Position numbers and translations under genes: made by a program. This document shows, one piece after another, positions 11,770 to 12,227 of a DNA stretch of 39,465 nucleotides (the first letter of the stretch is position 1; each line of letters opens with the position of its first letter). A model generated the notes under the pieces. It was not told the origin of the DNA and made no database searches. It worked only from the letters and a program-made list of their open reading frames with translations. The DNA lies in IMG/VR virus record IMGVR_UViG_2526164598_000015; one strand, written 5' to 3'. Origin of the DNA: a virus. Lineage: Duplodnaviria > Heunggongvirae > Uroviricota > Caudoviricetes.

Positions 11770-11799
11770 TTGAAAGGAACCATAACCTTTATGTAAAAT
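11770..11799 (+). promoter_or_regulatory. Candidate hok mRNA promoter (-35 TTGAAA, -10 TAAAAT)
   Basis: 17-bp spacer; transcript start would fall near 11806 where the leader (GGGTGCTTGAGG...) resembles the plasmid R1 hok mRNA 5' end as recalled. Confidence 0.4.
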
Positions 11800-11879
11800 T
11801 ACTGCGGGTGCTTGAGGTTATCTGTCTCAGGCATGCCACCAAAAGGCAGATAGAAAAAAGCCCCAGTTAACGTTACGCG

Positions 11880-11960
11880 TCCTGCAAGACGTTTAACATT
11901 AATCTGAGGCTCAATCTATGAACGGCAAATCTAGGTTAGCCTCTTACGTGCCGAAAGGCA
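11880..11960 (-). ncRNA. Putative Sok-like antisense RNA (approximate location, by analogy)
   Basis: Inferred only from hok/sok locus organisation: antisense to the hok leader / mok start region; no promoter confidently identified. Confidence 0.25.
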
Positions 11961-11974
11961 AGGAGAAGCAGGCT

Positions 11975-12130
11975 ATGAAGCAGCAAAAGGCGATGTTAAT
12001 CGCCCTGATCGTCATCTGTTTAACCGTCATAGTGACGGCACTGGTAACGAGGAAAGACCTCTGCGAGGTACGAATCCGAACCGGCCAGACGGAGGTCGCT
12101 GTCTTCACAGCTTACGAACCTGAGGAGTAA
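11975..12130 (+). CDS. hok: Hok/Gef-family type I toxin (HokD/RelF-like)
   Basis: 51 aa MKQQKAMLIALIVICLTVIVTALVTRKDLCEVRIRTGQTEVAVFTAYEPEE: TM helix plus conserved LCEVR..G..EVA.F.AYE motif; in-frame upstream mok-like extension from 11918; AAGGAGAAG RBS. Confidence 0.85.
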   Translation: MKQQKAMLIALIVICLTVIVTALVTRKDLCEVRIRTGQTEVAVFTAYEPEE

Positions 12131-12200
12131 GAGACCAGGTGAGGGAGAAATCCCTCGCCACCTCTGATGAGTCAGGCATCCTCAACGCACCCGCACTTAA

Positions 12201-12227
12201 CCCGCTTCGGCGGGTTTTGTTTTTTCC
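12201..12227 (+). terminator. Rho-independent terminator after hok
   Basis: CCCGC-TTCG-GCGGG hairpin followed by TTTTGTTTTTT. Confidence 0.6.

Follow-up and report, generated by a model that had tools for sequence, protein, structure and literature searches.

Positions 11,770 to 12,227 of the Caudoviricetes record IMGVR_UViG_2526164598_000015 (39,465 nt; the whole stretch is referred to below as the window) very probably contain, to judge from their sequence, a complete and structurally intact hok/mok/sok type I toxin–antitoxin cassette of the hokW/hokD lineage. It is carried by a lambdoid E. coli prophage as a moron within the nin-equivalent region. Its 51-amino acid (aa) open reading frame (ORF), which an earlier sequence-only reading had assigned to the Hok/Gef toxin family, matched Pfam HOK_GEF over profile positions 1–42 of 42 (E=3e-23; 81.6 bits, with the cut-off at 22) and is identical to HokW, as read from the 933W record, at 47 of 51 residues, and a match to PHROG 251 ('MokW-like host killing', E=8e-33) was also obtained. 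The peptide has a single hydrophobic segment at residues 6–24, contains the Cys/Thr/Leu-Cys core conserved in the family and agrees with what we take to be the PROSITE signature pattern of Hok/Gef proteins. A search of the hok/sok families in Rfam returned RF01794 'sok' at 11806–11980; the match scored 108.2 bits, above the gathering score of 59 (E=7.7e-24), and spanned the full model length (1–157 of 157). Despite its name, RF01794 recognises the sense leader, including the Sok-complementary stretch, and not the antisense RNA, because the match is on the hok strand and runs from the translational activator element (tac) to the hok AUG. The family matches of the locus are far beyond chance.

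The leader strings quoted in the sequence-only reading are all present (GGGTGCTTGAGG at 11806–11817, GGCAGATAGAAAAAAGCCCC at 11845–11864, AGCCTCTTACG at 11939–11949 and GCAAGGAGAAGCAGGCTATGAAG at 11959–11981), and the parallel that it drew with the hok mRNA elements of plasmid R1 holds on direct alignment with an R1-type locus. The in-frame mok-like extension is a 70-aa ORF at 11918–12130 sharing its frame with the 51-aa ORF, as mok does with hok in the R1-type locus, and the downstream intrinsic terminator was found at 12199–12216, followed by a T-run to 12226. Even the left boundary given there, 11770, is exactly the first base of the −35 hexamer of the hok promoter, and all structural details of that reading were borne out. 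The elements of the cassette are as follows.

11770–11799, plus strand: hok promoter, −35 TTGAAA (11770–11775), 18-nt spacer and −10 TAAAAT (11794–11799), with 10 of 12 consensus matches
11806–12224, plus strand: full-length hok mRNA of about 420 nt, from the 5′ end of tac to the terminator; the Rfam leader match also starts at 11806
11806–11817, plus strand: tac, GGGUGCUUGAGG, paired with fbi in the fold of the full-length RNA and with ucb after truncation
11818–11853, plus strand: 5′ hairpin with a 10-bp stem (11818–27 with 11844–53)
11854–11926, minus strand: Sok antisense RNA of about 72 nt, its coordinates transferred from the sokW misc_RNA annotation of 933W
11858–11866, plus strand: upstream complementary box (ucb), AAGCCCCAG, the anti-Shine-Dalgarno (anti-SD) of mok, placed from the folds
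11906–11943, plus strand: sokT hairpin of the truncated mRNA, mok SD GAGGCU (11906–11911) paired with dcb AGCCUC (11938–11943), with the mok AUG inside
11918–12130, plus strand: mok reading frame of 70 aa, in frame with hok and with a common stop codon, from the ORF list
11933–11961, minus strand: sok promoter, −35 TTGCCT (11961–11956), 17-nt spacer and −10 TAACCT (11938–11933), with +1 at about 11926
11975–12130, plus strand: hok toxin gene, 51 aa with one transmembrane helix, SD GGAG at 11962–11965
12113–12116, plus strand: TACG at Hok codon 47 (Tyr), by motif match a candidate TadA adenosine-to-inosine recoding site (Tyr to Cys)
12138–12159, plus strand: hairpin in the 3′ untranslated region (UTR) with a 9-bp stem present in all folds, the likely protective 3′ end of the processed mRNA
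12180–12192, plus strand: fold-back inhibitory element (fbi), CCUCAACGCACCC, pairing with tac
12199–12226, plus strand: intrinsic terminator of the hok mRNA, a 7-bp GC-rich stem and a T-run

The closest named system is hokW/mokW/sokW of 933W and Sp5, which is colinear with the window cassette between the −10 box and fbi; nucleotide identity is 90.6%, to 933W as well as to related Shiga toxin (Stx) phages. Between 933W and the window, tac (12/12), fbi (13/13), ucb, the dcb/sok −10 segment, the sok −35 hexamer and the SD of hok are all 100% identical, 62 of 70 Mok residues are shared, and mokW and hokW likewise end at a common stop codon. Both cassettes are carried on lambdoid prophages, but at different positions: the window copy lies between the replication genes and Q, whereas that of 933W lies at the far right end beside the tail genes. 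The two copies do not share the DNA that supplies the −35 region and the terminator. Similarity to hok/sok (parB) of R1 is more distant, with 22 of 52 Hok residues identical; in R1 the loop of the 5′ hairpin is longer and the Sok stem region is shorter. The order of elements is nevertheless the same, with mok in frame 19 codons upstream of hok, and the two loci have in common GCUUGAGG in tac, AGCCCC in ucb, AGCCUCUUAC in dcb and CAAGGAGAAG around the SD of hok. R1 hok/sok is plasmid-borne, with a proven role in post-segregational killing. Under the NCBI pipeline name hokD (relF), the gene is annotated in a 99.5% identical E. coli chromosome, where the peptide is identical at 50 of 51 residues. 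Presumably the Qin copy of hokD in K-12 lacks the mok/sok leader, whereas the window copy has it in full.

The folding of the hok mRNA was examined in full-length and truncated form. For R1, the tac/fbi, ucb and dcb elements and the switch between their pairings have been defined (PMC9841398). The unconstrained fold of the full-length 419-nt transcript had a minimum free energy (MFE) of −168 kcal/mol (z=−6.7 compared with shuffles), with tac and fbi forming a 12-bp duplex of −21.7 kcal/mol that was matched by 0 of 200 shuffled tac sequences, and with ucb paired to the mok SD region at 11904–11911. In the truncated fold ucb pairs with tac instead, and the mok SD pairs with dcb, a stem that is also contained in the Rfam consensus structure. 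An alternative 10-bp stem (11808–17 with 11825–34) joins tac to the 5′ arm of the 5′ hairpin and corresponds to the metastable hairpin of the nascent transcript. All five pairings (tac/fbi, ucb/mok SD, tac/ucb, mok SD/dcb and the metastable hairpin) emerged in unconstrained MFE folds. When the RNA ended at 12170 or 12178 the MFE fold was the open form, combining tac/ucb with mok SD/dcb, while ends at 12165 and 12175 gave MFE folds that kept the closed ucb/SD pairing together with the metastable 5′ hairpin; because some end points keep the closed form, the processing site is not fixed by thermodynamics alone. Mutations in the R1 equivalent of the last stem-loop, represented in the window by the 3′-UTR hairpin, abolish toxicity (PMC9841398).

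For comparison, 62 loci were collected from species-representative genomes, and most of these matched the window transcript over its length; with nhmmer, end-to-end alignment from position 1 to about 388 was obtained in most of 66 loci. Covariation was analysed in an alignment of 48 loci from Escherichia, Shigella, Kluyvera, Citrobacter, Photorhabdus, Pantoea and Erwinia. For the full-length structure, 88.8% of alignment cells were paired, compared with 38.6–47.2% when partners were slid, and 20 pairs had changed on both sides; the corresponding values for the truncated structure were 85.6%, 37.6–49.4% and 18 pairs. For both structures the observed values were matched by 0 of 500 shuffles on four of five measures. 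Element by element, the paired fraction was 91% for the 5′ hairpin and 97% for the 3′-UTR hairpin (four pairs with compensatory changes in each), 98.5% for the tac/ucb helix and 90.7% for tac/fbi, and the five GAGGC/GCCUC pairs between the mok SD and dcb were kept in 46–48 loci. In Photorhabdus, Pantoea and Erwinia, GGGCGC/GCGCCC takes the place of the GGGUGC/GCACCC pairing of Escherichia, and GAGA/UCUC that of GAGG/CCUC. The only tac position that covaries with fbi is position 4, which forms UA in 30 sequences and CG in 12; it is bulged in the tac/ucb stem yet covaries with fbi, as two overlapping structural constraints predict. MAFFT had set the bulge-free fbi of Photorhabdus one column out of register, and the counts of unpaired cells for tac pairs 7–12 are therefore inflated. 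In an alignment-free duplex test those loci pair perfectly, and almost every locus pairs its own 5′ end with its own 3′ UTR. Collectively, the comparison indicates that two mutually exclusive RNA structures are under strong purifying selection.

The Sok antisense RNA is predicted to fold into a 14-nt single-stranded 5′ tail, a 22-bp hairpin and a U-run (−29 kcal/mol, z=−5.5), and its tail is complementary to the mok start codon region. Its promoter occupies the same place as that of R1 (TTGCGC-17-TATCCT in R1, TTGCCT-17-TAACCT in the window), and both hexamers are identical to those of 933W and conserved in the 48 loci. A scan for the sigma-70 consensus did not pick up the sok promoter, because its −10 hexamer TAACCT matches at only three of six positions; the promoter was placed instead from the 933W annotation, the alignment and published mutagenesis. 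In that work, a promoter-less sokW construct made with the mutagenic primer YO-421 ('pro-less') lost antitoxin activity (PMC8621323). On our own mapping, YO-421 would replace the sok −10 hexamer (AGGTTA to CGGCTC on the plus strand). The 5′ tail (11921–11932, mok codons 2–5) is hypervariable, with 37 distinct tails in the 48 loci, and among 13 close relatives the mean pairwise identity was 0.55 in the tail compared with 0.88–1.00 in the regulatory boxes. Such variability points to specificity classes set by the tail, through which the up to nine copies in a genome would avoid cross-talk. Since the tails of 933W and the window are identical at only 5 of 12 positions, Sok specificity probably differs between the two. 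Position 11855 of the window is A, while G is found in the near-identical E. coli 504838 and in most relatives; the Sok terminator U-run on the antisense strand is therefore 6 instead of 4.

On the hok strand, the +1 set by the TTGAAA-18-TAAAAT promoter falls at about 11806, at the GGGUGC of the leader, and across the 48 loci the −10 box keeps a constant distance from the GGG start, while the −35 region varies with the flanking DNA. The mok ATG at 11918 is preceded 8 nt upstream by GAGG. The hok terminator is common to phage 640R1 and E. coli 504838 but not to 933W. Homology to 933W stops right after fbi, at about 12195, and the −35 box and the terminator come from flanking DNA that differs from phage to phage; given these limits, at about 11789 and about 12195, the hok transcript behaves as a discrete mobile cassette. 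At Hok codon 47, TACGAA was present in 45 of the 48 loci and the remaining three carried TGC (Cys); the TadA recoding motif and the logic of this recoding have been described (bioRxiv 10.1101/2025.08.07.668861).

As all control elements are identical, we are highly confident that the molecular mechanism of hokW/sokW applies to the window cassette. By analogy with the family, a constitutive promoter would give the hok mRNA of about 420 nt, and tac would be held in the metastable 5′ hairpin while the RNA is nascent. In the finished RNA, pairing of tac with fbi and of ucb over the mok SD would permit neither translation nor Sok binding; these closed-form pairings are supported by the folding and the covariation. 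Slow 3′ trimming to the hairpin at 12138–12159 would then remove fbi, a processing step assumed here although the alternative pairings that it would release are seen in the folds. Once trimmed, tac would pair with ucb and the mok SD with dcb, forming the sokT hairpin with the mok start exposed. The abundant but unstable Sok RNA would bind over the mok start by its single-stranded tail and block translation of mok and, coupled to it, of hok, and the resulting Sok/hok mRNA duplex would, as in the family, be cut by RNase III. If Sok synthesis stopped, the stable processed mRNA would be translated and the 51-aa Hok would damage the inner membrane.

Direct evidence on what such a cassette does for a prophage comes from Sp5. 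HokW of Sp5 is toxic and is neutralised by sokW RNA expressed from its promoter, partly via RNase III and Hfq; induction with mitomycin C leads to loss of sokW RNA and to RecA-dependent accumulation of HokW in the inner membrane; and deletion of hokW-sokW delayed growth arrest by about 40 min and halved phage release, while normal growth was unaffected (PMC8621323). By extension, prophage induction would be the most likely trigger of Hok in a lysogen carrying the window prophage, hastening growth arrest and phage release. Of the candidate roles, this induction-coupled one as a lysis helper is the best supported by direct evidence from a homologue. Post-excision killing and superinfection exclusion are plausible as compatible secondary roles, and the three roles would not be mutually exclusive. 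The Sp5 study covered growth arrest and phage release, not maintenance or exclusion. The function suggested in the sequence-only reading, addiction or abortive infection, appears plausible here.

Either of these functions could instead be the main one. If the cassette served chiefly for prophage addiction, loss of the prophage would leave the stable hok mRNA behind without Sok, and the cell would die. This was the founding function of hok/sok on plasmid R1 (PMC9841398; bioRxiv 10.1101/2025.08.07.668861), and the RNA architecture for delayed killing is fully present in the window; however, an integrated prophage is not lost by segregation, and removal of hokW-sokW from Sp5 left normal growth unchanged (PMC8621323). 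We consider addiction a rather unlikely main role. We give about the same modest weight to abortive infection or exclusion, whereby a lytic phage would shut down host transcription, Sok synthesis would stop and early killing by Hok would reduce the burst, perhaps alongside the divergent RexA-fold/RexB-like gene pair that neighbours hok. High-copy R1 hok/sok lowered the plating efficiency of T4 by 42% and gave smaller plaques, as cited in PMC8621323, and the divergent neighbour has a RexA-like fold. The effect on T4 was nevertheless modest and was obtained at high copy number, hok was not enriched beside defence systems in a survey (bioRxiv 10.1101/2025.08.07.668861), and Hok is absent from the PADLOC models. 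We are less confident of the biological role of the cassette than of its molecular mechanism.

Several observations weigh against the reading of the locus as an active, induction-linked hokW-type cassette. No model matched Hok in the PADLOC scan, and the NCBIfam Hok models scored below their curated cut-offs (48.5 bits against 73, and 40 against 89 for HokA). Homology to 933W begins at about 11789, between the −35 and −10 boxes, and does not extend to the −35 region; for this reason the strength of the hok promoter may differ from that of 933W. The induction-linked role would also draw on a single study, of a homologue at a different genomic position. The main rival reading is that the cassette looks intact but is silent, being weakly transcribed or never activated and carried without a phenotype as passive prophage cargo, like the chromosomal hok loci of K-12. 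In older tests of chromosomal hokA, hokB and hokC, as cited in bioRxiv 10.1101/2025.08.07.668861, post-segregational killing and rifampicin activation were not seen; the −35 region is swapped relative to 933W; and decayed copies exist among the relatives, including one locus with a mutated tac (L014) and leaderless copies that start only at query position 148–159 or so. Against silence, the hok and mok frames are both open, every regulatory box is identical to that of the experimentally active hokW/sokW, the replacement −35 is a good one (TTGAAA at 18 nt), and 42 of 45 diverse Hok peptides tested were toxic irrespective of location (bioRxiv 10.1101/2025.08.07.668861). Strong purifying selection on two alternative RNA structures also disfavours a silent cassette, which we regard as quite improbable. 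As for a named NCBIfam subfamily, none was assigned to the 51-aa peptide, since all scores were sub-threshold.

Three further proposals extend this reading. The cassette and the divergent RexA-fold/RexB-like pair may constitute a two-module membrane-targeting exclusion island in the nin region. The cassette also points the same way as antiterminated rightward early transcription; on induction, read-through would therefore run into the convergent sok promoter, and such a collision may supply the trigger for the loss of Sok seen on Sp5 induction. Sok tail classes that do not cross-react may allow up to nine copies to coexist per genome. Taken together, the exclusion island, the read-through trigger and the tail specificity classes seem to us unlikely.

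The cassette is widespread. Among 5,426 complete E. coli genomes, 4,714 contained a match to the 390-nt transcript core (median two copies, maximum nine), and a 3.7-kb stretch around the cassette is 99.5% identical to chromosomes of the enterotoxigenic E. coli (ETEC) type. Several non-Stx lambdoid phages carry a 97% identical cassette. The finding is correct, yet ordinary, since most E. coli genomes have the same cassette. The hok/sok family has been studied since the 1980s, and its prophage version was named hokW/sokW in annotations of the 1999 era and characterised in 2021. The lineage is already named, experimentally characterised, surveyed (bioRxiv 10.1101/2025.08.07.668861) and routinely annotated; prophages are known from surveys to be enriched in hok, and the gene is labelled by annotation pipelines. 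The practical value of the window copy is that of a fully mapped and apparently intact reference, with its RNA elements placed to the base, and this map corrects records that have spurious ORFs over the 3′ UTR and lack mok and Sok. In two such public records, both of which omit mok and Sok, small minus-strand ORFs are annotated over the hok 3′ UTR, fbi and terminator (L002 3385–3519 and L004 5171–5350; labelled 'mobile element protein' and 'hypothetical protein'), equivalent to about 12170–12350 of the window; these ORFs are probably annotation artefacts. Near-identical cassettes were also found in six loci (L007, L013, L040, L051, L059 and L066) from assemblies labelled Veillonella, Xanthomonas pisi, Acinetobacter idrijaensis, Haemophilus and Collinsella. 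Their contigs are mostly short (275 bp to 3.3 kb, and one of 22.9 kb), and E. coli contamination or mis-binning seems more likely than real occurrence.

A more interesting lead lies next door, in an uncharacterised DUF6731 family protein and a small membrane protein encoded by a minus-strand gene pair at 10115–11524. The sequence-only reading had placed the cassette next to a Rex-like pair. That description is partly supported: the top fold match of the DUF6731 neighbour is lambda RexA, but there is no relation to RexA at the sequence level, and the protein did not qualify for the RexA family (PF15969). The 159-aa downstream gene gave a weak PADLOC match to RexB (E=0.0015, 16.9 bits), with hydrophobic segments at RexB-like positions; it had no match to Pfam RexB (PF15968), and BLASTP returned nothing for it. 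The two genes are separated by 15 nt, as in lambda RexAB. Support for the Rex-like description is thus confined to the fold level, and the DUF6731 family looks like a distant RexA-fold protein with a small membrane protein as its partner. No papers on DUF6731 were found in a search of the literature.

By gene order, hok lies in the interval from the replication genes to Q and in the same orientation as rightward early transcription. On the minus strand, the window begins with an integrase (1–1119), a recE-like exonuclease, DicF and a LexA-type repressor (5919–6557), followed on the plus strand by a cro-like regulator, replication genes and a Q-family gene, and then by the minus-strand gene pair. 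Beyond the pair, the plus strand carries hok, DUF968/HNH, RusA, a second Q-like gene, a methyltransferase, three tRNAs and the terminase. The Q-family antiterminator gene (9574–10109, plus strand; Pfam Phage_antitermQ, 1e-30) is split into two frames around 9744, where an A-run lacks one base relative to the 99.5% identical E. coli 504838, which has an intact 174-aa gene; either a frameshift or a sequencing error would account for this. The second Q-like gene (DUF1133, 13990–14544) is intact. The gene for the DicF antisense RNA is full-length (4415–4466, minus strand; Rfam, 74 bits) and is typical of lambdoid prophages of the Qin/Rac type. The three phage-borne tRNA genes (16223–16469, plus strand) follow the Q-like gene and the methyltransferase, an arrangement also found in Stx-type and related lambdoid phages.
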